A program made the translations under genes and the position numbers. Below the pieces are notes generated by a model that worked only from the letters and a program-made list of their open reading frames with translations, had not been told where the DNA came from and did not search any database. A stretch of 64,000 nucleotides of DNA from a candidate division CPR2 bacterium GW2011_GWC2_39_10 (lineage in GTDB: Bacteria; Patescibacteriota; CPR2): NCBI GenBank assembly GCA_000993275.1, contig LBVV01000006.1, positions 24 to 64,023 on the forward strand, given 5' to 3'. Of this stretch, positions 9,561-39,296 are shown in pieces; position 1 is the first letter of the stretch; every line of letters starts with the position of its first letter.

Positions 9561-9600
9561 GCGTGCACCCGGTGTGTGCCAAACAGACACATCTGGAATA
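9561..9600 (+). repeat. REP-like element copy (degenerate): palindromic core CACCCGGTGTG + arm AGACACATCTGGAATA
   Basis: Matches the consensus ACACACCCGGTGTGTACTAGGTAGACACATCGGGAATA seen at 7 other sites; followed by a 43-bp duplicate of the thiF-like 5' end. Confidence 0.6.
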
Positions 9601-9688
9601 TTTCATCATAAGAATACTCACTTGACATAAAAACAGAATATTAACCATAAGCAAATATCACTATCTATGCGGCTATGATCATCTGTAG

Positions 9689-10201: not shown

Positions 10202-10241
10202 AAAAACGCTCCTTCAAAAACCGCTAGTGATGATTTAAAAA

Positions 10242-11333: not shown

Positions 11334-11397
11334 GGATCTTTATGCGATAATAGCCAAGATCTGTTTTACGCGTAGTTTAAAAAGGGTGGTGAAAAAA

Positions 11398-11868: not shown

Positions 11869-11898
11869 GCTTACCAGCGAGGGGTTTTAAAAACCCCT
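11868..11898 (+). terminator. Rho-independent terminator after greA
   Basis: GAGGGGTTTTTAAAAACCCCTC hairpin followed by TTTTTTT. Confidence 0.6.
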
Positions 11899-11938
11899 CT
11901 TTTTTTAAAAAAATAATAAACTAACAAATTATAGAAAA

Positions 11939-14060: not shown

Positions 14061-14700
14061 TTATTGTTTCTGGGATGACATAGAAGTCATTAAATCTTTT
14101 GGAGAAGACACGCCCTCTGAAGAAGTAGTTGAATTCCTAAAAAATTTAAAAACGGTAAATAATACTAAAATTTTAGATTTAGGATTTGGCGGCGGACGCC
14201 ATACCGAGATAATTGCCAAAATGGGTTTTGACACATATGGCTGTGACCCTTGCGATGGAATGATTAACTACACCAAAAATCGGCTGAAGGAAAAGGGCTT
14301 GAAAGCAAAAATAATTAAAGCTAGAATGCAAAATTTACCTTATGAAGAGTCATTTTTTGATGCAGTTATAGCAAATGGAGTTTTTCATCAGGCGATTTCA
14401 TTAAACGATTTTATTAAATCAATTAAAGAAACTACCAGGGTATTAAAAAAAAATAGTTTTCTTTATGTAAATGTTTTCTTTTTAAATGAACACATATACA
14501 ATACATACTACTCGAAAGAAAAAGAAGTATATACTTTTTTTACAGAAAAAGGCTTAATGACAACCTTTTTGCCAAAAGATAAATTTCTAGAAATAATGAG
14601 AAATAATAATTTGGAATTAGAAAAAATTGTTAGTGAAAAAACCACCAAGGTAAGCACTGGTTACAGACCGACATTAAAAGCAATTTTTAAAAAAACTTAG
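14053..14700 (+). CDS. Class I SAM-dependent methyltransferase
   Basis: Motif I 'ILDLGFGGGRHT'; 'VIANGVFHQ' post-I region. Confidence 0.65.
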   Translation: MNNYCFWDDIEVIKSFGEDTPSEEVVEFLKNLKTVNNTKILDLGFGGGRHTEIIAKMGFDTYGCDPCDGMINYTKNRLKEKGLKAKIIKARMQNLPYEESFFDAVIANGVFHQAISLNDFIKSIKETTRVLKKNSFLYVNVFFLNEHIYNTYYSKEKEVYTFFTEKGLMTTFLPKDKFLEIMRNNNLELEKIVSEKTTKVSTGYRPTLKAIFKKT

Positions 14701-15278
14701 GAATTTTTCAATCTTTTCCCGTACCAAGAAGCAAAATCCTTAATAGCGTTTCCCCAAAATTGAGCCTCATAAAAAGGATCCTCCTCTCTTAACTCGCTCA
14801 ATGTTTTAATTTCCCCGTCTGGTATAAAAAATAAATCATGCCACCTGCCTCTTTTACCATGCTGCTTTAATGCAATTGTTCCATTGGAACCGCCAGAAAA
14901 AACAATTGGATCTTTTCCCGGCTCACAAAAAGCAAAGGTATGTTCAAGTCTGGCTTTCCGATTTTTTTCATTTCTTAAAAGTTTTAAAAATTTTTCGGCA
15001 CCAATTTGTTTATCAAAATAAGCGTTATAGGGACCCGGAAGACCACCCAAGCAATCGATATATAAACCCGTATCAGATTTTAATGTGTTGACACCTAGTT
15101 TATCAGCTGCATACTTTGCACTAAAAGTAACAACATCAACACAAGACTTTGCTTGAATTTCGATAATTTCAAAATCAGGATTAATAATATCAATATTAAA
15201 ACCATAATGCTCTACAAAAAATCGGTTTGCTTCTTCAACTTTATGAGGATTTGTTGTTAAATAAACTAATTTTTCCAT
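14697..15278 (-). CDS. Non-canonical purine NTP pyrophosphatase (Ham1/RdgB/ITPase family)
   Basis: 'TTNPHKVEE', 'SDTGLYIDCLGGLPGPYNAYF', 'WHDLFFIPDGEIKTLSEL' align to RdgB signature regions. Confidence 0.75.
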   Translation of the reverse strand: MEKLVYLTTNPHKVEEANRFFVEHYGFNIDIINPDFEIIEIQAKSCVDVVTFSAKYAADKLGVNTLKSDTGLYIDCLGGLPGPYNAYFDKQIGAEKFLKLLRNEKNRKARLEHTFAFCEPGKDPIVFSGGSNGTIALKQHGKRGRWHDLFFIPDGEIKTLSELREEDPFYEAQFWGNAIKDFASWYGKRLKNS

Positions 15279-15373
15279 AGAGAAATCCTACCACTTCTTC
15301 AGATGATAATCAAGACTCTGTTTGGGCTGAGTACATCGGTAACAACTTTTGTTGTTTAGTTAATGGGCGAAAT

Positions 15374-15418
15374 GCACACACCCTGTGTGTACTAGGTAGA
15401 CACATCGGGAATATTTCA
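15374..15418 (+). repeat. REP-like element copy (ACACACCCTGTGTGTACTAGGTAGACACATCGGGAATA)
   Basis: Near-identical to copies at 18928 and 33559; followed at 15421-15462 by a fragment resembling thiF codons ~22-33. Confidence 0.7.
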
Positions 15419-15467
15419 TTTACACGATTGCTATAGCCACTTTCAAATTTTTTCCTTTTACTGCACC

Positions 15468-18927: not shown

Positions 18928-18970
18928 AATGCACACACCCGGTGTGTACTAGGTAGACACATCGGGAATA
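18928..18970 (+). repeat. REP-like element copy (GCACACACCCGGTGTGTACTAGGTAGACACATCGGGAATA)
   Basis: Consensus copy directly after the NUDIX stop. Confidence 0.7.
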
Positions 18971-24578: not shown

Positions 24579-24655
24579 GCCCCGGTAGCTCAATTGGATA
24601 GAGCGTCTGGCTTCGAACCAGGAGGTTAGAAGTTCGAGTCTTCTCCGGGGTACCA
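24579..24655 (+). tRNA. tRNA-Arg (anticodon TCG)
   Basis: Cloverleaf folded by hand: acceptor GCCCCGG/CCGGGGT, D-arm GCTC..GAGC, anticodon loop CTTCGAA, T-arm AGAAGTTCGAGTCTTCT, encoded CCA. Confidence 0.85.
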
Positions 24656-24758
24656 AAAAAGTTAAAAGTTTAGAGTTGAAAATTAAAAATCGGGGCTGGA
24701 ATATAATTTCTTAAAGAATTTGACTTTTAACTTTGCATTTTTTATAGACTTGAAGCAT

Positions 24759-24834
24759 GGTGGGCGTAGCTCAGTCGGCAGAGCTCTAGATTGTGGTTCT
24801 AGCGGTCGCGGGTTCGATCCCCGTCGCCCACCCC
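24759..24834 (+). tRNA. tRNA-His (anticodon GTG) with encoded G-1
   Basis: Extra 5' G pairing with discriminator C; anticodon loop TTGTGGT; GGTTCGATCC T-loop; CCA encoded. Confidence 0.85.
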
Positions 24835-24920
24835 AGTTGTAAATTACAGAGGTTAAAGCCTTTGTTTTTGCTTTTGTATAAAGTTTTTCAGTTCTAAAGT
24901 TTATATGTTAAAATATTATT

Positions 24921-25337
24921 ATGGAAACAAAGAATACAAATGCCCTAGAAAAACTTGCCGTATCAATACTTAACACTTTTTTTGTAATTCTGGTATCCTT
25001 TCCTTTCTATTTTGCCTATGGCTTTACTATAAAATATAGAATTATTTTAGTCATTATTTTCCTTTTTTATAACTTATTGTTTGTTTTTACCACCAAAAAT
25101 AGATGCCTGGGAATGATTATTCTAAATATTTATTGGAGGGAAGAATACCCATTAAAAAATCAAGTAATTTACGCCTTACTATATACTTTGAGTTTCTCCA
25201 CTTTAGTTATTTGGATATTCTTTCCGTTCGACCTATTACTCGTAAATTTGGTCTTAATCCAACTACCCTTTGTGTTAAAAACCGGAACAACCTTACACGG
25301 ATATTTAAGCGGAAAAATGTCCGGTTTCAAGCAATAA
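24921..25337 (+). CDS. Hypothetical membrane protein
   Basis: ORF with 4 hydrophobic helices. Confidence 0.3.
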   Translation: METKNTNALEKLAVSILNTFFVILVSFPFYFAYGFTIKYRIILVIIFLFYNLLFVFTTKNRCLGMIILNIYWREEYPLKNQVIYALLYTLSFSTLVIWIFFPFDLLLVNLVLIQLPFVLKTGTTLHGYLSGKMSGFKQ

Positions 25338-25545
25338 TACATCTGTGCTATTATTATTCATATGTTGCCCATTTTTTTAATTATGCTTATTACAATTTTA
25401 TCGATCTCCATGGCCGGGGATTTTATTACCAAGAAAATCGAAAAAAGATCAATTGACATTCCCCTGCCTCTTCCGGTTTCCCAAACTATACAATATCAAA
25501 TTGATAGCATAAGCTTTCTTTTGTTTATTTTGATGATTATTATTT

Positions 25546-26124
25546 TTGGTTTTTCCGGTCTTTATTGGTTTGCTAAGGGGAATATTAATGTCTGATATAA
25601 AGCTAAATTATGCAAAGCTGATATTTATTTTTATTGTTGTCATCAGCATATGGCCGCTTCTAAAAGACCCGTCCGCTTGGATCTTTTTGCATAATGTTGA
25701 CCTGGTTTTTCATGAAGCCGGTCATTTTATATTAATGTTTTTTGGCGAAGCTGTTCATATTTTAGGAGGAACAATTATTCAGCTTGCAGTTCCGATAACC
25801 TGCGCTGTCGCTTTTTATTTAAGAAAAGATTTTTATTCTGTAGGCATTATGTTAATGTGGCTTGGCGAGTCAATTATTTATACCTCTGTTTATATGGGCG
25901 ATGCTGTTAAACGTGTGCTACCTCTTCTTGGAGGAAATACTGACGGCCACGATTTTTATAATTTTTTCCCCATGTTTGGCATCTTAGATTATACAGATTC
26001 AATAGCATTAGTAACCAAAATTATTGGTTATTTAATAATTCTTGGAGGATTTATATTTGCTTTCATTAATATTTTTGACAAAGGTAAAGAAGAAAATTTG
26101 GAAGACATTCTCTTAAAAAGTTAA
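25546..26124 (+). CDS. Hypothetical polytopic membrane protein with HExxH motif (putative membrane metalloprotease)
   Basis: 'FHEAGHFILMF' HEXXH inside a TM region. Confidence 0.35.
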   Translation: MVFPVFIGLLRGILMSDIKLNYAKLIFIFIVVISIWPLLKDPSAWIFLHNVDLVFHEAGHFILMFFGEAVHILGGTIIQLAVPITCAVAFYLRKDFYSVGIMLMWLGESIIYTSVYMGDAVKRVLPLLGGNTDGHDFYNFFPMFGILDYTDSIALVTKIIGYLIILGGFIFAFINIFDKGKEENLEDILLKS

Positions 26125-26272
26125 GCTCGACTAATTAAGGTTTTTGTAGTATAATTAATCGGTCAAAATATGAAATATGGTGCAAACAAGTAGTCATTTT
26201 CATTGGTTTCAACAAAATTTCTGCGATGGTATCAACTGTTTATTGTTTATTGCTAATTGTTTATTAATTTAT

Positions 26273-26348
26273 GCGCCCGTAGCTCAGGGGATAGAGCGGC
26301 TGCCTTCTAAGCAGTAGGTCGGAGGTTCGAATCCTCCCGGGCGTACCA
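26273..26348 (+). tRNA. tRNA-Arg (anticodon TCT)
   Basis: Acceptor GCGCCCG/CGGGCGT, anticodon loop CTTCTAA, GGTTCGAATCC T-loop, CCA encoded. Confidence 0.85.
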
Positions 26349-26612
26349 TTGTTGCATTAAAAATTATCTTTAGACTAAGGCAAACAAAAACAAACGAAAA
26401 GACGAGTAGTGGGATGGATGAGAAGTTTATCCTGAGTGAAATCGAAGGAAATCCTCCCGGGCGTACCAGAATCTAAGCAGTAAGTCGTTCCCTACGAGTC
26501 GCGTGACCGTACGGATCTCTCCTGCTATAATATAAATATGTATCATGTTTATATTTTAAAAAGCTTAAAAGGCGGCAGTTTTATAAAAGAATATTTGAAG
26601 AATATTATTTAA

Positions 26613-26689
<77 letters not shown>

Positions 26690-26791
26690 AGAATAATAAA
26701 CAAGGAACAAAGAACAATTAACAATCAGACGAGAAGGTAAAATAAAAACTAAAATTGTTTATTGCTATTTGTTTATTGTTTGTTAACATCC

Positions 26792-26866
<75 letters not shown>

Positions 26867-27030
26867 GTTTCGATAAGTACTGCATCCAAACTAAAATTAT
26901 TTTAAAGGGTTCTCACCCTGCGGGTGATCGTCCGGAGGACGAGAATCCCGTTACCCGCTCCAAATTTTTAAACCTGTCTTTAATAAATAAGATATCTAAA
27001 ACCGTGCGTAAAAGAAAACTATCCCCCCTA

Positions 27031-27070
27031 TTATCCCGATGTGTCTACTTGGTACACACCGGGTGTGTGG
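27031..27070 (-). repeat. REP-like element copy (reverse orientation: TATCCCGATGTGTCTACTTGGTACACACCGGGTGTGT)
   Basis: Reverse complement of the consensus; 3' of the RCC1-pilin gene. Confidence 0.7.
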
Positions 27071-27087
27071 TTGTGTTCCTGTGTGCT

Positions 27088-28695
27088 CTAAAAAATATCC
27101 AAGCTTCCTGAGCCACTCTCGTCTTTTACTATACCTGGAAAATAACTATTAGTAGTTGAACCGTTACCTAATTGACCATAAGTATTTACCCCCCAAGAAA
27201 TAACTTTTCCATCAGGATAAAAAGATAAAGCGTGACCAGATACTACTATTAATGATACCCCCGACAAACCGATAGAATTAGATTCATTATTTACCCTAAC
27301 CGGCAGCCCTCTGTTAATTGTTGTTCCATCCCCAAGACGCCCGCTTCCATTTGAACCCCAAGCCCAAATATTGGCATCTTGATCTTTAGCCATAGACGTA
27401 CCACCGCTTCCTGCAAAGATTTGCTTTATACCTAATAAATCAATGATTCCGGCACTATCTTTAACGCGAACCGGAAGAACCTTATCTTTGGTGGTGTTAT
27501 CCCCCAACTGGCCGCCGGAATTAGATCCCCAAGCCCAAACGTTCCCATTTGCGTTAAGAGCTAACGAATGCGTGCCGCCTGCAGAAATTGAAACAATATC
27601 GGATAATGATGAGCTGCCGGAACTATCCTTCACCAATACCGGCAAAGAACGATCCGTTTTACTTCCGTCACCAAGCCTACCATCCCAATTATAGCCCCAT
27701 GTCCATATATTACCGCTTGAACTTAAAGCCATAACATGCGTACTTGAAGTAGATATCTTCGTTGTGCCAGTTAAATATCCAGTTCCGTCACTATTTTTAA
27801 TTTTTACAGGCAAATTACTATTATTAGTCGTGCCGTTACCCAATTGGCCTCGACTGTTGCTGCCCCAAGACCACAAATTATTTATACTATCATTTGCGAC
27901 ACAAAATGATACACCGCAAGCAATTTTAACTATATTAGAAAGACTTCCGGTTCCAGATTCATTTTTGACGAGGACGGGAAGTCTAATATCATCTGAATAA
28001 ATACCAACACCCAGTTGACCATTATCATTGTCCCCCCAAGTCCAAACATTGCCATTTGCATCTAATGCCGCTGAAAAAAATAAGCCTCCGGCTACTTCTA
28101 TAATATTCTGAAGATAGCCAGTGTTGTCTGAATTATTGACTTTTTTTGGCAAACTTCTGTCACTAATTGTATTGTCACCCAACTGCCCTTCAGTATTAAA
28201 CCCCCAAGCCAATACATTACCTGCCGATGTTACTGCCAATGAGTGATTGCTTCCGACTGCAATTAAGTTTTTTTCCGATTTACCTCCTCCCGAAGAGGTA
28301 AATAAAATTTCTAAACTTCTGTATATACCCCCTGATTGCCCCTTTGCCGTTATTTTGCCGGTGGTGCTATCCTTAGTAACAACCCAGCAAACACCAGAAT
28401 AACAAGTTTCTGAAGCAATATAATCATCAGACGGATTTAACAGACCTTCCTCCAGCCCTGTCTCTGCCGCGTAGTAAGCCTGTTGGGAACTGGCGGCATC
28501 GCCGGAGGCCTTAATTTCTGTCAGCACTATTTGAGCAATAGAAAGGCCGATTGTTAAAACAATCATGGAGATAATAAGGGAATATAAAAGAATAGAACCT
28601 TTTTGATTTTTTTTGTTTCGGATTTGGAGCTTAAGCAAAATATCCCTCCAATAATATAATACACAAAGAAACGACTCTTGAAAAGTAAACACCAA
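27088..28695 (-). CDS. PilX-like minor pilin N-domain fused to a 7-bladed RCC1-repeat beta-propeller
   Basis: N-terminal TM + 'QQAYYAAETGLEEG' (PilX_N-like); seven repeats of the form '...NxxGQLGDNT...'/'GRLGDGS' (RCC1 signature) throughout the C-terminal 400 aa. Confidence 0.65.
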   Translation of the reverse strand: MVFTFQESFLCVLYYWRDILLKLQIRNKKNQKGSILLYSLIISMIVLTIGLSIAQIVLTEIKASGDAASSQQAYYAAETGLEEGLLNPSDDYIASETCYSGVCWVVTKDSTTGKITAKGQSGGIYRSLEILFTSSGGGKSEKNLIAVGSNHSLAVTSAGNVLAWGFNTEGQLGDNTISDRSLPKKVNNSDNTGYLQNIIEVAGGLFFSAALDANGNVWTWGDNDNGQLGVGIYSDDIRLPVLVKNESGTGSLSNIVKIACGVSFCVANDSINNLWSWGSNSRGQLGNGTTNNSNLPVKIKNSDGTGYLTGTTKISTSSTHVMALSSSGNIWTWGYNWDGRLGDGSKTDRSLPVLVKDSSGSSSLSDIVSISAGGTHSLALNANGNVWAWGSNSGGQLGDNTTKDKVLPVRVKDSAGIIDLLGIKQIFAGSGGTSMAKDQDANIWAWGSNGSGRLGDGTTINRGLPVRVNNESNSIGLSGVSLIVVSGHALSFYPDGKVISWGVNTYGQLGNGSTTNSYFPGIVKDESGSGSLDIF

Positions 28696-28800
28696 GGTTG
28701 AACCCTTTATCCCAACAAAAACTCACTTAGAAAAAATAAAATAGATAACCGTGCTTAACAACCTGTCATCCGTAGGGTGAAAAACCGTTGTTTCTTTATT

Positions 28801-28850
28801 TTATCCCGACGTGTCTACTCAGTACACACCGGGTGTGTACTGAGTTCACA
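28801..28850 (-). repeat. REP-like element copy (reverse orientation) with extended palindrome CTCAGTACACACCGGGTGTGTACTGAG
   Basis: Same element as 27031-27070, same orientation; the two copies bracket the RCC1-pilin gene. Confidence 0.7.
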
Positions 28851-28852
28851 AA

Positions 28853-29275
28853 CTAGGGCAGGTTTATTTTTATTTCTCTTACAACACCGTTAAAAGAACC
28901 TTTGGCGATTAACTGGCCGTTGTCGTTTTTAAAATAATAACAGGAAGATTCTTGACAGTTGTTTTCCTCGTAGCCGTTGGAAAGTGTTCCGGCATTGTGC
29001 ATCTGCAAGGCTTTTTCTAAAGCTGTTTCGGCATTTCTATAGGCCTTGTCGGAATTTACCAAATCACTTGAAGCCCTAGTTTCGGTTAAGGCAATTAGGG
29101 AAATCGCAAGGCCAATAGCAAGCGCAATAACAGAAATAATCATGGCCCAAAGAAGAACCGCTCCTTTATTTTTTTTAAAAAACAAATTTTCTTTTGATTC
29201 TTTATGTCTTGTCGCAAACAAATTATTTTCTCCTATATAATATAATAAACAACAAGCAGGAAAAAGGGAAAGCAA
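28853..29275 (-). CDS. PilX-like minor pilin (N-domain only)
   Basis: TM helix 'AVLLWAMIISVIALAIGLAISLIAL' followed by 'DKAYRNAETALEKAL'. Confidence 0.5.
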   Translation of the reverse strand: MLSLFPACCLLYYIGENNLFATRHKESKENLFFKKNKGAVLLWAMIISVIALAIGLAISLIALTETRASSDLVNSDKAYRNAETALEKALQMHNAGTLSNGYEENNCQESSCYYFKNDNGQLIAKGSFNGVVREIKINLP

Positions 29276-29506
29276 AAAGGGTCGAACTCTTATTCTTCGA
29301 CTCCTCTTAAGGGGGTCCGTCTTGGTGACGAGACAGGCCAGTCTTGGCGCCTAGACAGGCTTCGCTTAAGCGAGACAGGTGGAGAAGTGCCTTTAAGAAG
29401 TTACAAAAATGCAGTTCTCCACCTACTCCGTAGAGTCGAACAATATTAAAGTGCGTAAATCCTGTTAATATTAATTGTTAAAAGTTGAAGGTAAATTTTT
29501 TTTAAA

Positions 29507-30760
29507 TCAGCCCTTAAGGCAACGCACCGAATGACCATGCGCCTTATCGGCTATGTTACGAATGACTGTAAAGTAGTCAGCGTGCAAGAGACGAAACCAA
29601 GCATTAGAAACAGTCGAGGTACTAGACCAATAATCGCCGTGAGGACCCGGATTGCCGAACGTGCCGTCGTCCCAATTGCGATGGCCGGCAAGGAATCCTT
29701 CAAAACCGGAATCGCCGGTAAGCTTTAACTTGGTGCCAGCCGAGCTGCAATCAAATACGCCGACTCTGATATCCGAACAAGTGTTGCCGTCATCTTTTAA
29801 ATAATTTTCCAAGGCGTACCACTCAGAATCCTTAGGAACATGAAACCCGGCGGGACAAATGCCTTGGTCACCTTCTGTGGTGCTGCCATTCATGGCCGTA
29901 TTCCATTGATACAAGCCGCCGTAAATATTGCAGTTCTTTTCATCATTATCATAACAATACTTCTGTCCAATAGCTTGATTAACGGAACCGGCTACCATGG
30001 TACCCACATTCATATTGCACTTCATCCATGTTTGAGGCGTGGGTGATGTATTAATGGTAACGGTGGGAATATAATTTGGGTCATAATTTCTTTGCGACAT
30101 CAAGGTGTTTAAAGAAACTTTTTGTTTGTTTCCTTTGCTATCAGCCTTTTTGCTTTCGGCTGTAATTGTTAGTTTAAAAAAGGGCTGTACCGGGCCGCAT
30201 TCTTTGGCAATTTCGTTAGGATCTATTTCAAAGCTAGTAACAACGGATGAGGTTGAAACAACATTTTGGGCGGCATCCGCATTTTTTTGCATTTTTATAA
30301 TCCCCGCACCTGCTGAACAATTATCGCACCAAAAGGTTATTTTTTCGTCAGTTTGTGTAGTAACAATAATTTTATTGGGATCAGTGTCGGCACTAGAATT
30401 AACGGAAATACTTTTTGCGCCTCTCACTTCTCTTGATATAGCCTCTAGTGCATACCTAACGTCTTGCGTCACCTTCCTGGCACTATTGGCACTTTGGTAA
30501 GTTGACCCTATGGTTATAAACAGCTCGGTCATGGCCACTAAAAGCAAGCTCATAACCCCAATGACAACAATCATTTCGACAAGGGTGAAACCCTTGGAGT
30601 GCACGTAACCCCCGCGTCTTTGCGAGTGAAACGAAGCAATCTCCTCATATTTGCAACAAGATTGCCGCACTCTCCGGCGGCTGCCGGATCGTTCGCAATG
30701 ACAATTGTACGCAGTTACTTTGGGATTGTTTGTTTTATTATGTTTATTTTGCTTTATCAT
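29507..30760 (-). CDS. Type IV pilin-like protein (prepilin N-terminal methylation motif) with C-terminal FISUMP (Fibrobacter succinogenes major paralogous) domain; the true start is probably GTG at ~30607
   Basis: 'KGFTLVEMIVVIGVMSLLLVAMTELF' class-III signal; C-terminus 'GGLYQWNTA...CPAGFHVPKDSEW...GDYWSSTS...HGHSVRCLK' matches the TIGR02145-type domain; the annotated N-terminal 50 aa are encoded by a MITE-like repeat. Confidence 0.65.
   Translation of the reverse strand: MIKQNKHNKTNNPKVTAYNCHCERSGSRRRVRQSCCKYEEIASFHSQRRGGYVHSKGFTLVEMIVVIGVMSLLLVAMTELFITIGSTYQSANSARKVTQDVRYALEAISREVRGAKSISVNSSADTDPNKIIVTTQTDEKITFWCDNCSAGAGIIKMQKNADAAQNVVSTSSVVTSFEIDPNEIAKECGPVQPFFKLTITAESKKADSKGNKQKVSLNTLMSQRNYDPNYIPTVTINTSPTPQTWMKCNMNVGTMVAGSVNQAIGQKYCYDNDEKNCNIYGGLYQWNTAMNGSTTEGDQGICPAGFHVPKDSEWYALENYLKDDGNTCSDIRVGVFDCSSAGTKLKLTGDSGFEGFLAGHRNWDDGTFGNPGPHGDYWSSTSTVSNAWFRLLHADYFTVIRNIADKAHGHSVRCLKG
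30596..30715 (+). repeat. ~115-bp MITE-like element, copy 1 (CGTCTTTGCGAGTGAAACGAAGCAATCTCCT...GATTGCCGCACTCTCCGGCGGCTGCCGGATCGTTCGCAATGACAATTGT)
   Basis: ~90% identical to 57649-57765; partial copy at 62001-62060; lies inside the 5' end of the pilin-FISUMP ORF. Confidence 0.75.
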
Positions 30761-30773
30761 TATTTTCCTTAAT

Positions 30774-32456
30774 TTAGGGGGTGTAAAAACTTAGCGTTGG
30801 CAAAGCCGTTCCGTCGCCAATATAGGTTGCAGCATTCAAACTTACATCCTGCCCCACAATAGCATGTGGTGCAGCCAAGGTGCTGCTTAAATTAGCATTA
30901 AAATACAAATGAGATTTTAGCGATATGAAAATAGCCTTTGTAAAATCATAGGTTTTGCCCGCGGCATTCGCATTGACCGAAAAATTCCTTTTAGGGTCGA
31001 TCTCATCATCATTAATCATTACAATGCGACCAGCCCCGCTAGGATTTCTGACAAAAGCGTTGCCGTTGTCATTATTTATTGTTATTCCATCTTTTGCCAC
31101 CACGACAATGTTTTTGTCCGCAATAGCAGAGTCAAGCTCAATTCCACCCGAAGTTATGGTTATTGAGCCGGTAACATATAAATTACCTTTTAGCTTAAGT
31201 GCCGCGTTATTCTGAATAGTCAAATTGCCTATAACTATGGCATTATTCCAATTAGTATCAGAGCTTATTGTTATGTTGCCGGCGGCAAGAGAAGTTTTTT
31301 TGCCAACATCTGTCAAACCATTGATGTAGTTATAAACCTTGACAGTATCATAGGTAAAAGCTTGGTAACTTGGAACGCCGAGACAATTACCCGTAATACT
31401 TCCGGCCGGATTAACTGTTGCTAGCCCAAATAACGCCGTTCCTTGAATACACGCCGTTGATGCATTATAAAAATTTAATGTTCCGTTAAATGTAGAACGC
31501 ACGCCCCCTCCAGCAGCGCTTGCAGAATATATGTTGCCGTAAAACTCGCCCCCGGCAGTAATAGACAGGTTGTTATTAGAGTAAATACCCCCCTTAACCG
31601 TAACATTATTAGTTGCAGTAAACGTCTGCATGGAAAATACCGTATAATTTAAAGACAGAGAATCTATTAAAGAAATTTCAGGAGGGGCCGTAGTGGCGCA
31701 ATATGCTGTTGCCGTTTTATTTAAAGAATCGGTTAAAACATATTTATACCAAGTTCCGGCAGTTAAAGGGCTATCAGGTTTACTGCCCGAACTTGCTGCA
31801 GCTATGCCGAGCCCTGGAATTACAGTGCCATTCCTTGCAATAGTGGCGCTGCCGTTAGGGGAATTGTAGCCAAGCGTTATAGTTGTATCATCACTGCTAG
31901 AACAAACAAGCGTTGGGTCGCCGGCTACAGCGGCAGTGGCGGCCTTCCAATTTGTTAATGTTTTGCTTTCCTCAACAAAGCCTTTGCCCCAACTTACGTT
32001 GACGGTTATTTTTCTTTTATTGTCGGGATCGGCGGCATCTTTTTCGATCTTAATAGTGCGGGAAAAAGTTATTCCGTTTATGGGCGCTATGGTTTCGGTT
32101 TTATCGGCACTGGTTACGTTAACCATCGTCCACCCCTCGCTTGAATCAAAAGCGTTATCGGGTAATATAAACCAAGGAGAATACGAACTAACAAACAAGC
32201 GGGCATCCCAAGGGCTTTTGTTTTGTTTATAGTTTGTGTCCCTAATATTTTGGGCAATTTCTATAGCTTCCTGGGCTAAAAAGGAAGCTTGGGTTCTTTT
32301 TTTAGTTTCGCTTATGGCAACAATAGATTGCGTAACCAAACCCAAAATTGCCGTAAAAGCAACGGCAATTACTGTGGTTGCAATAATAACTTCTAACAAA
32401 GTAATGCCTTTGCAATTATTTTTTGCCGTTATGAGTTTTAAAATACCCCTCCGCAT
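30774..32456 (-). CDS. Type IV pilin-like protein with large C-terminal beta-helix-like repeat domain (candidate tip/adhesin pilin)
   Basis: 'KGITLLEVIIATTVIAVAFTAILGL' prepilin signal; C-terminal repetitive 'NITISSDTNWNNAIVIGNLTIQNNAALKLKGNLYVTGSITITSGG' (parallel beta-helix-like). Confidence 0.6.
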   Translation of the reverse strand: MRRGILKLITAKNNCKGITLLEVIIATTVIAVAFTAILGLVTQSIVAISETKKRTQASFLAQEAIEIAQNIRDTNYKQNKSPWDARLFVSSYSPWFILPDNAFDSSEGWTMVNVTSADKTETIAPINGITFSRTIKIEKDAADPDNKRKITVNVSWGKGFVEESKTLTNWKAATAAVAGDPTLVCSSSDDTTITLGYNSPNGSATIARNGTVIPGLGIAAASSGSKPDSPLTAGTWYKYVLTDSLNKTATAYCATTAPPEISLIDSLSLNYTVFSMQTFTATNNVTVKGGIYSNNNLSITAGGEFYGNIYSASAAGGGVRSTFNGTLNFYNASTACIQGTALFGLATVNPAGSITGNCLGVPSYQAFTYDTVKVYNYINGLTDVGKKTSLAAGNITISSDTNWNNAIVIGNLTIQNNAALKLKGNLYVTGSITITSGGIELDSAIADKNIVVVAKDGITINNDNGNAFVRNPSGAGRIVMINDDEIDPKRNFSVNANAAGKTYDFTKAIFISLKSHLYFNANLSSTLAAPHAIVGQDVSLNAATYIGDGTALPTLSFYTP

Positions 32457-32772
32457 ATAAATATTGTGCCCTTGTTATAATGTTAAGTCAAGTAAAAATA
32501 GAAATAGCTAAATCCTAAACCACGTGCACTTTTTAAAATTGATTTATTATGGGCTCTAAATTTGTCATTCCAAACTTGATTTGGAATCCATACTCTCTGG
32601 ATCCCGGATCATGTCCGGGATGACAATTCTGGGAAGTTTTGTGAGCGGTCCCAAAGATGGGAGAAAAGGAATGCAACTTTTGAGTTTTTTTATTTCTCCT
32701 TTCCTTTTATTCTATATTCAATATTCCCATTCCAGCCTCTAAATTCTAAACTCTATATTCTTCCTTCCAAGT

Positions 32773-33513
32773 CTAGCTGCAGCCGACGGTTTCTGTGGGG
32801 CTTGTCCATACCTCGCCCGTTTGCATATTGATGTTAATTTTCTTAAACTTATTTTGGGATGTATCTTGTAAAACAAAAATGATTTTTTTGTAAATGGTGC
32901 CGTCGACCGGGATAATTGAGATATTATCATCGGTATAATAAATTTTTCTTTCGCTGGGCAGTTCGGCGACTTTAAACACAATACCTTTAAACGAAGTGCC
33001 GCTGTTAACGAGCAGACAAGTTGAATCGTCGGCATCAGAAGGGCGACATCTATAAATACACCCGAAATTAATATTGTGGATATTTTTGTGAACCGTGTAG
33101 TCTGCCGGGGATCCTTGATCCCGAAAAGAATATTTAGTTTGGGTGTCATCAGGAGAAGAAAAACGATCTTGGTTTGCAGGAAGGACTGTGCCTACTTTAT
33201 CCACAAAATGACTGTAATACCATCTCTTATAACCAGGAAGGCTATCCAACCCCTCAATCATAAAACCGTAACCGTTAACATCGGTAGCCGCGCTTAAAGC
33301 TGTTGACGGTTTTGGGGCCAGGGAGTTTTCCCTTGCTTTAACAATTTCCGACTGCACAAGTTCGGCGGCCAGTTCCAAATCCGTGTCTTTTTTAATATTA
33401 CCCCATCTTATGACCGCTATGCCCGACAAAATGCCGATAATACCGACAACAATGATAAGTTCAATTAAGGTAAGCCCCTTAGATTGTAAACATAAGCTTT
33501 TTTTGCCCTTCAT
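32773..33513 (-). CDS. Type IV pilin / pseudopilin (GspG-like N-terminus)
   Basis: 'SKGLTLIELIIVVGIIGILSGIAVIRW' prepilin cleavage/methylation motif. Confidence 0.7.
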   Translation of the reverse strand: MKGKKSLCLQSKGLTLIELIIVVGIIGILSGIAVIRWGNIKKDTDLELAAELVQSEIVKARENSLAPKPSTALSAATDVNGYGFMIEGLDSLPGYKRWYYSHFVDKVGTVLPANQDRFSSPDDTQTKYSFRDQGSPADYTVHKNIHNINFGCIYRCRPSDADDSTCLLVNSGTSFKGIVFKVAELPSERKIYYTDDNISIIPVDGTIYKKIIFVLQDTSQNKFKKININMQTGEVWTSPTETVGCS

Positions 33514-33558
33514 GAATTTATTATAATCCCGTTAGAGATCGCGGGCAAGAAGAAATAT

Positions 33559-33598
33559 TGCACACACCCGGTGTGTACTGAATTGACACATCGGGATA
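33559..33598 (+). repeat. REP element, left flank of the RAYT transposase gene (CACACACCCGGTGTGTACTGAATTGACACATCGGGATAAG)
   Basis: Exact inverted partner at 34289-34328. Confidence 0.8.
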
Positions 33599-33604
33599 AG
33601 AGCT

Positions 33605-34270
33605 TTATTCGCCAACCAAGTGTTTAACTTTTTCCAATTCTTTTTGATAATCCGCTTGATCAAAAACAAATTCTTTGTACTGATCTTTTGTCTTAAAATG
33701 GCCCAATACGTCCGTGGTATTAATAAACTTATTTTGCTTTTGCCCCATATAATAGCCAAAAGATGTCCATTCGTATTTTGGGAGTTCATTTATTCTTATT
33801 ATATTTGAAGATACCGGATTTAGATGGATATATCTCGAAACATGAACAAGCTGCTCATCCGTTTCAATCGGAACTGCTTTAAAAACCGACTGAAATACCG
33901 TCCCGACTCTATCGTATTTAACATTAAAATATTTTCCGTAACTATTTTGAAGATTTCGCATAAAAATTTGTGCTCCACCCTCTTTTAGTTGTTTTAGGAG
34001 CAAATGAAAATGATTAGGCATTAAGCCGAAAGATAAAATATCAACTAAAGGCTCATTCTTATTGAGCTTTTCCAGAAATTCTTCTTTATCTTTAAAAGAC
34101 ATTCGATTGTAATGAGAAAACCTTATCGATGGATTGCACCTAACGAAAGCTGCAACATCTAAAAATCTTTCATAGTCTCTTTGGCCTTTAAAAATAGGAG
34201 ATCGGTTTACGCCCCTGTTGATAACATGATAAATACCTCTATCCACAAAAATTGTTTTTCTATACGGCAT
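33605..34270 (-). CDS. tnpA: IS200/IS605-family HUH tyrosine transposase (TnpA / REP-associated tyrosine transposase, RAYT-like)
   Basis: HUH motif 'LMPNHFHLLL', catalytic Tyr region 'VSRYIHLNPV', ~220 aa; flanked by inverted REP copies. Confidence 0.8.
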   Translation of the reverse strand: MPYRKTIFVDRGIYHVINRGVNRSPIFKGQRDYERFLDVAAFVRCNPSIRFSHYNRMSFKDKEEFLEKLNKNEPLVDILSFGLMPNHFHLLLKQLKEGGAQIFMRNLQNSYGKYFNVKYDRVGTVFQSVFKAVPIETDEQLVHVSRYIHLNPVSSNIIRINELPKYEWTSFGYYMGQKQNKFINTTDVLGHFKTKDQYKEFVFDQADYQKELEKVKHLVGE

Positions 34271-34288
34271 GTTAATATAATAGTTGTG

Positions 34289-34328
34289 TTATCCCGATGT
34301 GTCAATTCAGTACACACCGGGTGTGTGT
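34289..34328 (-). repeat. REP element, right flank of the RAYT gene (inverted)
   Basis: Reverse complement of 33559-33598. Confidence 0.8.
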
Positions 34329-34349
34329 AAAACGGTAAAACGGGAATTA

Positions 34350-34375
34350 AAAAAGGCCCTGAAGGGCCTTTTTAC
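34350..34375 (-). terminator. Rho-independent terminator downstream of the major-pilin-like gene
   Basis: GGCCCT-GAA-GGGCC hairpin with T-runs on both strands. Confidence 0.55.
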
Positions 34376-34925: not shown

Positions 34926-35480
34926 TAACCCTCCTTAAAAAATTTTCGTTTTTATATTAAACAATTGTCTTACATATAATTATTGCCCATACTATGACAG
35001 TTGTAAATAGGAAAAATAAAATTTTTTTAATTTCTAATTACTCTAATTGACCTAATTTCTAAAAATCCTATCTTTGCTTGCCATAATATAAACATAATAA
35101 GATTTCATAAACCGATTATAAAAGATTCCCGCCTTCGCCCGTCTTGGTCCGCCTTGGTGACGAGACAGGCCAGTCTTGGCGCTTAGACAGGCGAGTACCA
35201 AACGAGTGATAAGTGGGGGGGCGGAATGAAAAAAGCGGAATGAAAAAATTGATAATTGAGAATTTTTGACATTTGAAATTTATTATTTGACATTTAGTAA
35301 ATAGATTCCGGGTCAATTGATTGTATTTTTTTAATGAATGCCCGGAATGACAGTTTCAAGACAGTCTGAATATATGGATAAGCACCCTCCCCTAGCGCCT
35401 CCTCCTCCAAAGGCGGACAGGCACAGCAAGGGAAAGGAATGATGCAATTGTTTCCTGGTTACTGGTTTCTGTTTCCTAGC

Positions 35481-36698
35481 TTATTGATTTTTCACTGCAG
35501 ACGTCAAGTCGTATAACGGTACAACGATACCGGCTACCACCAGGGCTACCGCCACGCCCATTGCTACTATTAGAAATGGTTCTAGCAGTTTTGAGAAATT
35601 ATCAACTATTTCGTCAACTTCTTTTTCGTAAAAAGAAGCCAGCTTGCCCATAACTTCGTCTAAGGCGCCAGTTTTTTCCCCTACTTGAATCATCTGAATT
35701 ACTATGCGGGGAAATTTTTCCGAGGATCTCAGGGCCGTAGAAAGGTTCTCGCCATTTTTGACTTTATCCAGTGAATCCATCAATTCCTTTTCGTAGTGAA
35801 TGTTCCCTATTGTTCTCGAGGTAAGTTCTAAAACGGCCACAATTGACAAACCACTTTCCAGGAGCGTAGTGGCGGTTCTGGCAAACCTTGCCATATATAT
35901 TTTACGCATTAGTCCGCCAAAAACCGGAATTTTTACAATAAAACTTGCCCAAAAATTCTGACCGGTTCTGGTGGTGTTTATAAAATACCTAAAGAGCCAA
36001 ATAGCACCGACGGAAGCTATAAGTAAAATAAATTTATATTTAATCATAAAGTCGCTAAGACCGAATAGGACCCTGGTAAGCATTGGTAATTTAGCCCCGG
36101 AGGTTTCAAAAATGGCTTTCATTTTTGGGATTAAAAATATTGTCAACAGAACCATAACGCTAATTAAAGCCGTTAAAATAAAGGCCGGATAAATCATGGC
36201 GCCCCGGGTTTTAACGGCCATTTCATAATCCTTTTCCATATGATCGGCAAGTTTAAGTAAAATTTCATCCAGTTTGCCGGATTCTTCGCCGGCCGCAATC
36301 ATATTTACAAAAATGTCCGTAAAAAGGTTGGGAAATTGCCTTAACGACTCGGCAAAAGTGGTACCGGATGCCACGTCTCTTGCCACTACTTTTATAATTT
36401 GATTAAAACGCTTGTTGCTTTGCTGCAGCGCAAGAGTTTCTAGGGCATCTACTATGGGAAGACCGGCGTTTATCATGGTGGCCAGTTCTCTTGAAAACAT
36501 AACCTTGTCTTTTTGCTTTATCGGGGTAAACCTGTTTTCCAAATTTTCCAAAGTCATGGAACCGGATTTATTGCCGACATCCGTAGTTATAAGTCCGTGC
36601 TCACGTAAAATAGAAACCACTTCCGCCTCGCTTCCGGCCTCCATGGATCCCACTTTAAGATTCCCTTTATTATCCCTGGCTTTATATAAAAATTCCAT
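35481..36698 (-). CDS. pilC: Type IV pilus assembly platform protein PilC (GspF family), copy A
   Basis: Two T2SSF domains; 405 aa; three TM helices in the typical positions. Confidence 0.85.
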   Translation of the reverse strand: MEFLYKARDNKGNLKVGSMEAGSEAEVVSILREHGLITTDVGNKSGSMTLENLENRFTPIKQKDKVMFSRELATMINAGLPIVDALETLALQQSNKRFNQIIKVVARDVASGTTFAESLRQFPNLFTDIFVNMIAAGEESGKLDEILLKLADHMEKDYEMAVKTRGAMIYPAFILTALISVMVLLTIFLIPKMKAIFETSGAKLPMLTRVLFGLSDFMIKYKFILLIASVGAIWLFRYFINTTRTGQNFWASFIVKIPVFGGLMRKIYMARFARTATTLLESGLSIVAVLELTSRTIGNIHYEKELMDSLDKVKNGENLSTALRSSEKFPRIVIQMIQVGEKTGALDEVMGKLASFYEKEVDEIVDNFSKLLEPFLIVAMGVAVALVVAGIVVPLYDLTSAVKNQ

Positions 36699-36712
36699 AA
36701 ATAACTAAAAAA

Positions 36713-36985
36713 TTAATTTACTAAATTCTGTTTCCAATCGCCGTATTTCTCTTCATCCTGCTTTCTGGAAACCGCCCCCTTAAACTCGTCAAGTTTTCTC
36801 AAGTTCGCCTCCACTTGAGCGGTATTTGTTGAAGGCAAGATTACCTCGGCTGGTGCTTCTTTAAATTTTTTATAAACGGGGCTCGCTAAAATTGCCACTG
36901 CCGCCACGGCAGCCAGTAAAGCAAATAAAACGCTAAGCCTTTTTGCGGTTGCATTCATTAAAACCTCTTTGCCTCTATAACCCAA
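36713..36985 (-). CDS. Hypothetical small membrane-anchored protein (possible PilP-like accessory protein)
   Basis: Single N-terminal TM 'LSVLFALLAAVAAVAILA'; position after pilO; overlaps pilO by 28 nt. Confidence 0.3.
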   Translation of the reverse strand: MGYRGKEVLMNATAKRLSVLFALLAAVAAVAILASPVYKKFKEAPAEVILPSTNTAQVEANLRKLDEFKGAVSRKQDEEKYGDWKQNLVN

Positions 36986-37573
36986 CTTACGTTAATATAA
37001 TCTTTGTTTTCCGCACCACCACGTTCCCTATCCAACTTTACTTCTTTTAACTCTAAAAATCTTTTATTATTGCCGACATTATCCATAAAATTGGTTATCT
37101 TATAATAATTAGCTTCTTCAACCCTAAATGTTCCGTTGTAAAAATAGGATTTAGCGGTTGCATCTTGGGTGCCCGTAGATGTTGGGGCGGAACCCGACAT
37201 ACCGTGGGTTGAAGCTAAATATTGATAATCGGCCTGGTAAGAAAAAAGCACAATTTCTCTGGAATCGCCAACATCAATAAGCCCACTATCTTCCATAATT
37301 TTATCAACCTGATTTGCCACTTCCTCCGGCTTATCATTTGGCGGTATTGCTTCTTCTATGCCGGCAAACAAATCTTGAAATGTTTTTTGATCATTTTCAT
37401 ACTTTTTTAAATTTTCTACTTTTTCATTAAGCGCTTTTAATTCTCCCTTTTTTCATATTTTTATAAATTGGACCCGTACCTAAATAGGCACCGGCAACGG
37501 CAACAATAAAAATAAGTAAACTTAGCGAGTTATAATATTTATCGGGTATCTTGGACAATATATCTTTTCCCAT
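36958..37573 (-). CDS. pilO: PilO-like pilus assembly protein, apparently frameshifted in a T6/A6 homopolymer (37448-37453)
   Basis: The N-terminal part (ATG at 37573, overlapping the pilN stop as TAATG) encodes a TM helix 'LSLLIFIVAVAGAYL' and stops after 48 codons. Deleting one A in the run fuses it in frame to ORF 36958-37371 (coiled coil + C-terminal domain). Confidence 0.5.
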
Positions 37574-38196
37574 TAGAAAGCCTGCTTATTATATTTAGCC
37601 GTTATTTGAAAATTAATCCAATCCTCTTTGTCCATTGTTTCAATTTTATTGACCGTTACGGAATCGAACAATTTGGTAGTTACCGTTTGTTCCTTATCTT
37701 GAACCTTAATTGTCTTTTTTGTATCGAGACCATCTAGAAGCGCCGCATATGTCCGCGGATGATTAACGCGCATATCGCTTGTTCCAACCAAAACGATAGT
37801 ATTATTATCATCAAAAATTTGGAAACCATCGATATGGATTTGATCTTTTGGAGTTTTGTCGGTAATTTTTTTTATTAAATAGTAATAATTGACATGATTA
37901 TCCAAAGCCATGGTGGCTATATCGGCTTTTTGGCTCATTTTTTGAAGATCCAGCTCTAAACCTTTCATGTTCGCATATTTCGTATTTATTGTTTCGTAGT
38001 CAGCGTCTTGCTTGTTTTTTTCGTTTTGCAGATAAAGCTGAAAGCCATAAAGCCCGCCAAAATATAAAGCCAAGGTAGAAAGTGCAACAACTATTATAAA
38101 AATAGGCGAAAAATAGGCTTTTGCTAATTTTGAACTTATACCGGGCCCGGATACTTTTGGGGCGCTGTCTGACTGTCCGACCAAATTAATGGGCAA
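37573..38196 (-). CDS. pilN: PilN-like pilus assembly protein (TM + coiled coil)
   Basis: Cytoplasmic N-terminus, TM 'IFIIVVALSTLALYFGGLYGF', coiled-coil periplasmic region; follows pilM. Confidence 0.5.
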   Translation of the reverse strand: MPINLVGQSDSAPKVSGPGISSKLAKAYFSPIFIIVVALSTLALYFGGLYGFQLYLQNEKNKQDADYETINTKYANMKGLELDLQKMSQKADIATMALDNHVNYYYLIKKITDKTPKDQIHIDGFQIFDDNNTIVLVGTSDMRVNHPRTYAALLDGLDTKKTIKVQDKEQTVTTKLFDSVTVNKIETMDKEDWINFQITAKYNKQAF

Positions 38197-38228
38197 GAAA
38201 CCCTCCTTCTTCTATATATAAGATACAC

Positions 38229-39296
38229 TTACAAATAAGATAAGGCAAGACCAACTGCCACCGAAAATTTAGAAGCAACCGGCACAAGCTTTTCGCTGGG
38301 CAGTCTGGAGCAATCTATGTTGGCCCAAGGATTAACTTGGCTTACCTTAATTGACAATTCATGGGCAAAAAAATCATTAATTCTCGGCACCAAGGATGAT
38401 CCTCCGCTTAAAATTAAGCCTTCAAAAGGAATATTTACAAAATTCGGATCTTCTTTTATTTTTATTATGCCTTCAACAATTGGGTTTAATATTTTTTTAA
38501 TTGCAAAGAAGATTTTACCGTCAAATTTGCTTGGCTCCATGCCTATTTCCATTTTGGTTTTTATAGCTTCTTCCGGCTTCATGTTAAATTCCTGCATTAA
38601 AACGTTTGTTATTGCCAGCCCGCCTATGCTTATGGTCTCGGCATGTTTTAGAGTCCCTTCGCTGACAATCATAACTGTAGAGTAATTATGTCCCATGTGG
38701 ATAAATATAAAACTTTTACTCATTCCCTTAAAAAGATTCATGAGGCTCAAAACTTCTATATCGAACCCCATTGGACTAACTCCGCCGGCAGAAGCTATTT
38801 GATTATATTTTTCGGCAACATACTGAGGAAAATACCCCAAAAAGATTTCTCTTGCACCGTCTTTTCCGGTTTTTAAAGTTTGCCAGTAGCTTAAGCTATC
38901 CTCGCCTTCCTTTGCCGCCCTATATTTAATTTCGTATTTCATGGCAAACTGAAGCTCGTCATCATCCATGGGCGGAAACGTAAAAATATCCCAACCGGAA
39001 CTGTTTGATGGAATTGAAATAACTGCCTGATTGGCCGATATTTTGGCTGCCCCAAGTAACTGGCCGACAGCTTGGCCAAGCTGATTGTTAGCTTGCGGCG
39101 AATCGCTAAGTAGCATGCCGGGCGGCAGATTATATTCAACCGCGGACTGCAAAAAAACAGCTTCTTTCTCCTTGGAAAGCTGGACTATTTTTATTGAGGT
39201 TGAGCCTATATCCAAACCAAAGTAATCTTTCAAAAGATTCCCTCCATATATATAGTAACCAGGAATCAGGAAACAGTAAACAGGAAAAAACCCCAT
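38229..39296 (-). CDS. pilM: Type IV pilus assembly ATPase-fold protein PilM (actin-like), copy A
   Basis: 'FGLDIGSTSIKIVQL' phosphate-1 motif and 'LSGGSS' phosphate-2; 355 aa. Confidence 0.75.
   Translation of the reverse strand: MGFFPVYCFLIPGYYIYGGNLLKDYFGLDIGSTSIKIVQLSKEKEAVFLQSAVEYNLPPGMLLSDSPQANNQLGQAVGQLLGAAKISANQAVISIPSNSSGWDIFTFPPMDDDELQFAMKYEIKYRAAKEGEDSLSYWQTLKTGKDGAREIFLGYFPQYVAEKYNQIASAGGVSPMGFDIEVLSLMNLFKGMSKSFIFIHMGHNYSTVMIVSEGTLKHAETISIGGLAITNVLMQEFNMKPEEAIKTKMEIGMEPSKFDGKIFFAIKKILNPIVEGIIKIKEDPNFVNIPFEGLILSGGSSLVPRINDFFAHELSIKVSQVNPWANIDCSRLPSEKLVPVASKFSVAVGLALSYL

Follow-up and report, generated by a model that had tools for sequence, protein, structure and literature searches.

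A probable REPtron-like unit, with a RAYT-like Y1 gene and structured repeats, in the pilin gene cluster of a CPR2 bacterium

Introduction

In the pilin gene cluster of the CPR2 bacterium GW2011_GWC2_39_10, on a 64,000-nt stretch of DNA that is referred to here as the window and to which all window counts below apply, a gene for a 221-residue HUH/Y1 protein is enclosed by two inverted copies of a 42-nt structured repeat, further copies of which lie scattered between ordinary genes. This arrangement is probably a REPtron-like unit, that is, a single-copy, domesticated-type gene for an HUH/Y1 single-stranded DNA (ssDNA) endonuclease/transferase, together with its cognate structured repeats. The reading is carried by the class of the enzyme, by intact motifs under purifying selection, by the inverted arms and their extragenic copies, by the promoter geometry and by a co-variation of the arms that extends across the family, all of which are directly observed. 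Work on repetitive extragenic palindromes (REPs) and on REP-associated tyrosine transposases (RAYTs) has so far dealt almost entirely with Proteobacteria, and with some Cyanobacteria and Bacteroidetes, and full-text literature searches returned no paper linking RAYTs, REPs or IS200 with the candidate phyla radiation (CPR).

An intact Y1 gene between inverted repeats

The Y1 gene (33605-34270, minus strand) is intact, and its assignment to the HUH/Y1, RAYT-like class is supported by Pfam, by motifs, by a structural model and by fold comparison. The product carries the motifs PNHFHLL, with the HUH residues His87-Phe-His89, and SRYIHLNP, with the catalytic Tyr147 (YIHLNP being residues 147-152), followed by a C-terminal tail of about 70 residues containing W-T/S-S-F. 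A first-pass annotation, made from the DNA letters, had proposed a 221-residue HUH-Y1 transposase with HFHLL and RYIHLNP motifs, and both the open reading frame (ORF) and the motifs were found, with a match to Pfam Y1_Tnp (PF01797) at 33.8 bits against a gathering cutoff of 23. The same model matches 20 of 20 family members, none of which contains a further Pfam domain (no Bac_DnaA_C or other helix-turn-helix (HTH) tail), and His87, His89 and Tyr147 are invariant in an alignment of 20 homologues, as are Phe126-Gln127 (LFQS) and several residues of the tail.

A phmmer search of the Y1 protein against PDB sequences gave no match, and a profile of the family gave weak matches to TnpAREP of E. coli and to ISDra2 TnpA. 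The 20-sequence alignment also served for a confident AlphaFold model (predicted local distance difference test score, 87.6; predicted template modelling score, 0.84), whose Y1 transposase fold is closest to TnpAREP (PDB 4ER8) and nearer to it than to IS608 TnpA; its C-terminus consists of short helices and then a single long helix (residues 195-219). The ratio of nonsynonymous to synonymous substitution rates relative to a 97%-identical orthologue from Crystal Geyser is 0.14, and the gene is therefore under purifying selection. It is present once in the window (tblastn), and an identical protein, which UniProt names an IS200-like domain protein, is recorded for CPR2 GW2011 genomes from the Rifle aquifer (KKQ94937.1, KKR36021.1).

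A repeat search returned a single inverted pair around this gene, with arms of 42 nt at 33558-33599 and 34289-34330 that are 98% complementary and 689 nt apart. Complementarity is perfect over 39 nt (33561-33599 and 34289-34327), in accord with the exact reverse-complement arms of about 40 bp that had been reported at the outset with coordinates right to 1-2 nt. The upstream (5') arm, TTACACACACCCGGTGTGTACTGAATTGACACATCGGGATAA (34289-34330, minus strand), is delimited by the repeat search, by side-by-side comparison of copies and by nhmmer, and the downstream (3') arm (33558-33599, plus strand) begins 5 nt past the stop codon, where it scores as a terminator-like hairpin on the strand of the gene.

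The palindrome ACACACCCGGTGTGT, with at most two mismatches, occurs at six sites in the window as compared with 0.02 expected, and the 33-nt pattern CACACCCNGTGTGTACNNNNNNGACACNTCGGG at six exact sites as compared with 0.00 expected from shuffles. Side-by-side comparison of the six sites reveals a common unit of some 40 nt, (G)CACACACCCGGTGTGTAC-N6-GACACATCGGGA(A)TA. In addition to the two arms they comprise four intact dispersed copies: at 28801-28842 (minus strand), between a 140-residue gene and a gene with RCC1 repeats; at 27030-27071 (minus strand), 16 nt past the stop of the RCC1-repeat gene; at 18928-18970 (plus strand), between convergent NUDIX and 124-residue genes; and at 15371-15413 (plus strand), upstream of the start of a Ham1-family gene, the last with a G to T change in the loop of the palindrome. 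With an nhmmer profile, a fragment near 18227 and a further, degenerate copy (9564-9600, plus strand), which departs from the 34-nt core by 8 substitutions, were also detected. The dispersal of the repeat family claimed in the first-pass annotation thus holds for four intact and one degenerate further copies in 64 kb, and all seven copies, arms included, lie between ORFs and adjoin ordinary genes such as Ham1, NUDIX and ThiF. Rfam identified nothing at the repeats and, over the window, only five tRNAs.

The repeat consists of three segments (X, X', spacer, X), so that two alternative hairpins are possible. As ssDNA, the 42-nt unit is predicted to form a 10-bp hairpin (CCCGGTGTGT/ACACATCGGG; loop of 9 nt; folding energy -8.6 kcal/mol, z about -3), which pairs the 3' half of the palindrome with the third segment in preference to the 6-bp hairpin of the palindrome itself; because this larger hairpin is favoured over the small palindrome, the unit is described here as X, X', spacer, X. 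The near-perfect palindrome previously noted in each arm is thus present, but it is not the most stable fold of the ssDNA. The four intact dispersed copies have GTAG directly before the third segment, where the two gene-flanking copies have ATTG; this GTAG lies 5 nt 3' of the small palindrome, within the loop of the predicted 10-bp hairpin.

Two further observations concern repeat copies and their surroundings. One contig (L102) has three copies in the same orientation, at 423, 1642 and 2657, with a spacing of about 1.0-1.2 kb and with identical flanks at two of them, and may represent small paralogous genes arranged in tandem, with a repeat after each. In the window, five tRNA genes are clustered on the plus strand (24579-26863) at the far end of the pilus-gene block, about 170 nt separating the last of them from the copy at 27030-27071.

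Co-variation of gene and arms among relatives

A homology search returned 2920 protein clusters (at 90% identity) of about 222 residues and 45-60% identity to the Y1 protein, the named clusters belonging to Shapiro-, Levy- and Curtissbacteria and other Patescibacteria. Species-representative genomes hold at least 511 loci encoding relatives, and the best 80 of these at least 511 loci are from CPR-type metagenome-assembled genomes, some evidently mislabelled as Gammaproteobacteria. With these numbers the gene must be considered common in CPR bacteria, and the earlier opinion that such an element is unusual there is not sustained. Several genomes hold two divergent copies, the second being 41-50% identical to the query, and the genes of relatives are mostly located on large chromosomal contigs.

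The relationship between the two arms was analysed at the best 80 loci by aligning the 80 nt upstream of each gene to the reverse complement of the 80 nt downstream, and 79 loci were scored. Arms of the same locus gave a median score of 31 versus 14 for arms of different loci (Mann-Whitney p 5e-34), with 53 of the 79 same-locus pairs above the 95th percentile of the cross-locus pairs. The palindrome varies by lineage (CACACC/GGTGTG, AACCCC/GGGGTT, CCACC/GGTGG, CGATCC/GGATCG and others), and its type is equal on both sides of the gene in 31 of the 32 loci that could be typed on both. Protein identity is 53% between loci that share a palindrome type and 48% otherwise, and in 51 of 124 arms the sequence of the 5' stem arm recurs in the third segment, as compared with 18.9 +/- 3.5 after permutation. 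From the same-locus match, the shared palindrome type and the repeated third segment it follows that gene and arms co-evolve, and this co-evolution, as a pattern in the sequences, is the strongest argument that the protein would recognise the arms.

The two arms differ in a regular way: TTGAC is found in the upstream arm at 57 of the 79 loci and in the downstream arm at 5, the downstream arm tending to (G)TAGAC. In the window both arms are of the upstream, TTGAC type, while the downstream arm of the Crystal Geyser orthologue differs at several positions, and the near-perfect symmetry of the arms is therefore attributed to recent homogenisation. The dispersed copies of the window are similar to the GTAG-type arm, which in other members of the family is the usual one downstream of the gene.

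Dispersal is also seen in a Shapirobacteria locus (L080), where head-to-head doublets of about 80 nt, resembling REP doublets forming hairpins (REPIN-like), occur at four places in 10 kb (4107-4187, 9901-9981, 10722-10835 and 13367-13498), which include both flanks of the Y1 homologue.

Promoter, terminators and neighbouring pilin genes

A sigma-70-like promoter, TTGACA-17-TATTAT (34277-34305, minus strand; 11 of 12 matches), ends 6 nt before the ATG of the Y1 gene and is the best promoter-like site between 32.5 and 35.5 kb. Because it ends so close to the start codon, the gene is probably expressed, to judge from its sequence, as a leaderless mRNA, with the -35 box inside the upstream arm. 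The geometry recurs among relatives, with TTGACA-N16-18-TAnnnT present in 43 homologous loci, in 24 of which exactly 6 nt separate the -10 box from the start codon.

The genes on either side of the element carry prepilin N_methyl motifs, which confirms its location between a pseudopilin and a major-pilin gene as given in the first-pass annotation, with the qualification that the element lies past the terminator of the pilin gene. This terminator, a hairpin of the form AAAAAGGCCC-TGAA-GGGCCTTTTT with flanking A/T runs (34350-34373), stands outside the element, between it and the major-pilin gene, and marks its outer limit on that side; an analogous terminator follows the pilin gene of a more distant syntenic CPR2 genome (L111, PilC 56% identical). 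The 246-residue pseudopilin gene has a promoter-like site of its own, TTGCCC-17-TATAAT (33520-33548, minus strand), which likewise ends 6 nt before its ATG, and leaderless starts may be common in this genome rather than special to the Y1 gene. An effect of the element on pilin expression, which had been suggested, finds no support in this arrangement, as each neighbour has a signal of its own, a terminator in the case of the pilin gene and a promoter-like site in that of the pseudopilin gene.

Elsewhere in the window, an inverted repeat (29377-29445) is found between a 417-residue Fib_succ_major prepilin gene and the 140-residue ORF. A gene for a 118-residue 23S_rRNA_IVP or bAvd-like four-helix protein (58863-59219, minus strand) is located between ruvA and ruvB, and L111 has a homologue of it between pilC and the pilin gene; a diversity-generating retroelement was considered near this gene and rejected, its neighbours being ruvA and ruvB with no reverse transcriptase seen nearby.

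Presence, absence and breakpoints at the repeats

Five other assemblies share the chromosomal context of the Y1 gene (pilM, pilC, pilin, Y1 gene and three prepilin-type genes). An empty site was sought by means of PilC, a search with the 177-residue pilin having led to a paralogous pilin locus beyond the end of the window, and was found in L111, where the pilin terminator is followed by 74 nt and then by the next gene, with neither Y1 gene nor repeat. The 773-bp module is therefore a presence/absence difference at an intergenic site, in agreement with the insertion that the first-pass annotation had proposed to check in related genomes. In L111 the pilin gene is followed, in the absence of the Y1 gene, by comparable pseudopilin, Fib_succ_major and RCC1 genes, and the junction between the Y1 and pseudopilin genes is kept in a diverged relative. 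Inspection of the flanks of the element revealed no target-site duplication beyond the arms, in line with what is expected of Y1 enzymes.

Homology between related genomes is repeatedly lost at or near the edges of repeats. Between the window and the Crystal Geyser unit described below, its limit coincides exactly with the outer margin of the upstream arm (34330). A 145-nt block containing the repeat at 28824 (28706-28850) is upstream of the RCC1 gene in the window and downstream of its counterpart in the Crystal Geyser unit. The gene concerned, which follows the 140-residue ORF (window 27088-28695; L001 569-2425), shares only its first 250 nt or so between the two populations, beyond which the products diverge, with RCC1 repeats in the window and a BNR-type protein at Crystal Geyser, and the RCC1-repeat gene of the window is bracketed by two repeat copies in the same orientation. 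With a relative showing 98% identity over window 9592-15453 (L106 5977-11868), synteny is lost at the 3' end of the degenerate repeat (9600) and, at the other end, at about 15453, some 40 nt past the repeat at 15371-15413. These repeat-edge breakpoints fit enzyme-mediated events and repeat-repeat recombination equally well. A sequence of about 150 nt with similarity to window 9310-9457 also recurs four times in the L106 contig.

Interpretation of the unit

If the module is REPtron-like, then the enzyme would, by analogy with E. coli TnpAREP and IS608 TnpA, bind the folded repeat on ssDNA, for example on the lagging-strand template, cleave beside it through Tyr147 and the HUH-bound metal, and rejoin the strands, with the result that repeat units would be copied or moved to new extragenic sites and that recombination junctions would arise at repeat edges. 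Since the upstream arm holds the -35 box of the gene, enzyme bound to this arm would probably also auto-regulate its own expression, and the downstream arm could double as a terminator-like hairpin.

A number of observations weigh against this reading. The score of the protein against the equivalog model NF047646 (REP_Tyr_transpos) of NCBIfam is 39.9 bits, below the cutoff of 80, and the guide-contact motif of E. coli TnpAREP (WQ or WE) is here FQ. No copy of the repeat has GT[AG]G at 0-2 nt 5' of the foot of a hairpin, and because the GTAG of the dispersed copies is off the 5' hairpin foot, the repeats fall outside the canonical definition of a REP (PMC6006769, PMC8266576). The flanking arms, with the spacer ...AATTG..., are unlike every dispersed copy (...GTAG...), the copy number is modest (7 in 64 kb), and the exact repeat pattern occurs in only 10 stretches of the metagenome collection of the Joint Genome Institute. 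In a simple search, a third copy within at most 20 kb was found in just 5 of 52 homologous loci, and dispersal is consequently regarded as lineage-specific and not as a rule of the family. Lineage-specific dispersal is already familiar from RAYTs and from the related terminal inverted repeat-associated tyrosine transposases (TIRYTs). Also on this side of the balance, binding, cleavage, the strand and hairpin that would serve as substrate and dispersal by the enzyme are all suggested by analogy, and ordinary homologous recombination between repeats could yield the same breakpoints. The first-pass label of RAYT and REPtron is accordingly kept in part, with inverted hairpin repeats and extragenic copies in its favour and a RAYT model below cutoff (as opposed to the supra-threshold Y1_Tnp match), FQ in place of a W motif and the lack of GTAG at the hairpin foot against it.

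The alternative that survives best, although it is unlikely, is a TIRtron-type unit, in which the arms are mainly cis-regulatory or terminal elements (operator and promoter upstream, terminator downstream) and the dispersed copies have another origin and are not substrates of the enzyme. Such a role would suit the -35 box that lies in the upstream arm at a fixed distance from the gene across the 43 loci, the terminator-like 3' arm and the many homologous loci without a third copy nearby; moreover, the motifs NHFH, FQ and YIHLNP are those of subclass 2.1, which has been described without REPs and matches the TIRYTs (PMC6006769, PMC3733652). However, neither a promoter nor a terminator needs a downstream arm that co-varies with the upstream one in its palindrome, downstream arms retain the hairpin segments even though they generally lack the -35 box, and dispersed copies are present both here and in L080.

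An 8.8-kb unit from Crystal Geyser

The 97%-identical gene is present on ten contigs from Crystal Geyser (L001-L010), all of them circular permutations of a single 8824-nt unit. Contigs L005-L008 have terminal overlaps of 141 or 79 nt. In three others a single complete unit and 6 additional nt are bracketed by short stretches from outside the unit that are mutual inverted repeats, and two further contigs have a different insertion point, the extra nucleotides across such contigs numbering 5-6 (non-unit brackets in L001, 1-102 and 8933-9059; in L002, 1-119 and 8949-9032). The bracketed contigs look as if an insertion sequence (IS) with a target duplication, of 6 bp in the group of three, had landed in a circle, with two different positions hit. 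An internal repeat was rejected as the cause of circular assemblies, as the longest is 39 nt compared with a k of 141. In the unit, the Y1 gene lies between two repeats; three prepilin-type genes, a small gene and the BNR gene come next, and a third repeat is then followed by an orphan IstB_IS21 gene (199 bits). The position in it that matches window 29377-29445 is the landing site of one of the insertions.

These contigs bear on a second alternative, that of a larger mobile cassette of about 7-9 kb, bounded by direct repeats and capable of forming a circle, with the Y1 protein as its transposase or rolling-circle initiator. That the Y1 enzyme and same-orientation repeats constitute such a cassette, leaving as a circle and exchanged between CPR2 lineages, is improbable; its cargo would be minor-pilin or adhesin-like genes (pseudopilins, the Fib_succ_major protein, RCC1 or BNR propeller proteins). 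Consistent with it are the permuted contigs with their terminal overlaps and no internal repeat above 39 nt, the contigs of one unit plus 5-6 nt between two ends of an inserted element, the shared orientation of the repeats at 34312, 28824 and 27054, and the exact end of homology at the outer repeat edge. In addition, the unit is 92-95% identical to the window (28448-34330 compared with L001), as opposed to 82-87% for backbone loci (35456-38732 and 58642-63790 compared with L113, L107 and L108) that comprise pilMNO-pilC, ruvABC, yebC and a glycosyltransferase gene, a difference suggesting that the Rifle and Crystal Geyser populations may have exchanged the cassette laterally in recent times. 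Nonetheless, the context is chromosomal and fixed in the window genome and in the five other assemblies, L111 has similar cargo-type genes without a Y1 gene, relatives are mostly on large chromosomal contigs, and the IstB_IS21 gene between two repeats on the circle is not explained by a simple excision. Because the assemblies alone fit a circle or a tandem array alike, the cassette as an explanation of the whole is kept as a minority reading and is rated as rather improbable. An autonomous IS200/IS605-family IS with tnpA alone, recently inserted in the pilin cluster, is disfavoured and very improbable, for although it would account for the Pfam Y1_Tnp match, the UniProt name and the empty syntenic site of L111, it is opposed by Y---NP in place of Y---Q (PMC6006769, Table 1), by inverted ends as opposed to same-strand subterminal hairpins, by the single copy in 64 kb and within-genome paralogues of just 41-50% identity to the query, by a predicted fold nearer to TnpAREP than to IS608 TnpA, and by the conserved pseudopilin junction.

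Implications

The locus is one example of a large clade in CPR2 and Microgenomates-type CPR bacteria on which the literature searched contains no paper. Within this clade a single conserved module is made up of the Y1 gene with its promoter and of two structured arms that co-vary, with dispersal of the repeat in some lineages only. The family thereby offers a natural series for the question of how a domesticated Y1 enzyme acquires dispersed repeats, the genomes being so small that each copy can be followed. Should the 8.8-kb circle prove real, the enzyme would also be connected with the movement of pilus genes that probably mediate attachment to a host, and a mobile cassette would mean transposase-driven swapping of pilus tip and attachment modules in episymbiotic bacteria.

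Comparison with known systems

By its motifs, the protein is closest to subclass 2.1 of the Y1 transposases, which corresponds to Group 1 (Bertels et al., 2017; PMC5581495) and largely to the TIRYTs (Di Nocera et al., 2013; PMC3733652), and in which alone, according to Table 1 of Quentin et al. (2018; PMC6006769), the set NH[YF]H, FQ and Y[IV]HLNP is found. At the level of motifs, NHFH, FQ and YIHLNP agree with this set; a length of about 220-240 residues, a conserved serine motif in the proximal tail and a gene within inverted repeats, some with self-complementary tracts and some belonging to moderately repeated families, are further points of likeness. Subclass 2.1 is reported to lack REP-like sequences and to have an HTH-like C-terminal domain (Bac_DnaA_C, HTH_23 or HTH_28), while the classical REP-associated subclasses are 2.2 and 2.5, with another combination of motifs (PMC6006769). 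The present family differs in having no HTH tail (0 of 20 members), and the arms, which contain no GGGG motif and hence no GGGGWSAS, form hairpins and have dispersed, REP-like copies.

Compared with the E. coli REPtron (TnpAREP/RayT; subclass 2.2, Group 2; PDB 4ER8), the unit has in common the Y---NP motif and a single gene inside inverted hairpin repeats with dispersed extragenic copies and, as with RAYTs in general, a low gene copy number with no near-identical duplicates. The sequence identity is only 11-15%, however, the protein has 221 residues as opposed to 165, and DHLH, WE and YIHYNP of the E. coli enzyme are replaced by NHFH, FQ and YIHLNP. The repeat is also different, being composed of three segments without GTAG at the hairpin foot and without a bulge, and present in modest numbers as singlets rather than as bacterial interspersed mosaic elements, with a promoter inside the upstream arm.

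The TnpA proteins of the IS200/IS605 family (IS608, ISDra2) share the HUH/Y1 catalytic core and, by analogy, the expected recognition of hairpins near the ends, but have Y---Q in a core-only protein of about 150 residues in contrast to YIHLNP in 221. Their hairpins are subterminal and on the same strand, unlike the 42-nt inverted repeats described here, and their elements are multi-copy, near-identical and often accompanied by tnpB, none of which applies to the unit. Subclass 2.6 and the class 3 TnpAY1, with their 'atypical secondary structures' (PMC6006769), resemble it in flanks that lack GT[AG]G and are detected manually, and in copies elsewhere in the host; they differ in their motifs (WQ with YIH[QN]NP, or Y---EQ) and in their hosts, which are Bacteroidetes or Planctomycetes/Acidobacteria (PMC6006769). 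The accurate label is thus that of a RAYT-like Y1 gene from a large clade of CPR bacteria, which has motifs of the subclass 2.1 type, no HTH tail, a small family of dispersed repeat copies in this genome and, on either side, atypical three-segment hairpin repeats that carry its promoter.

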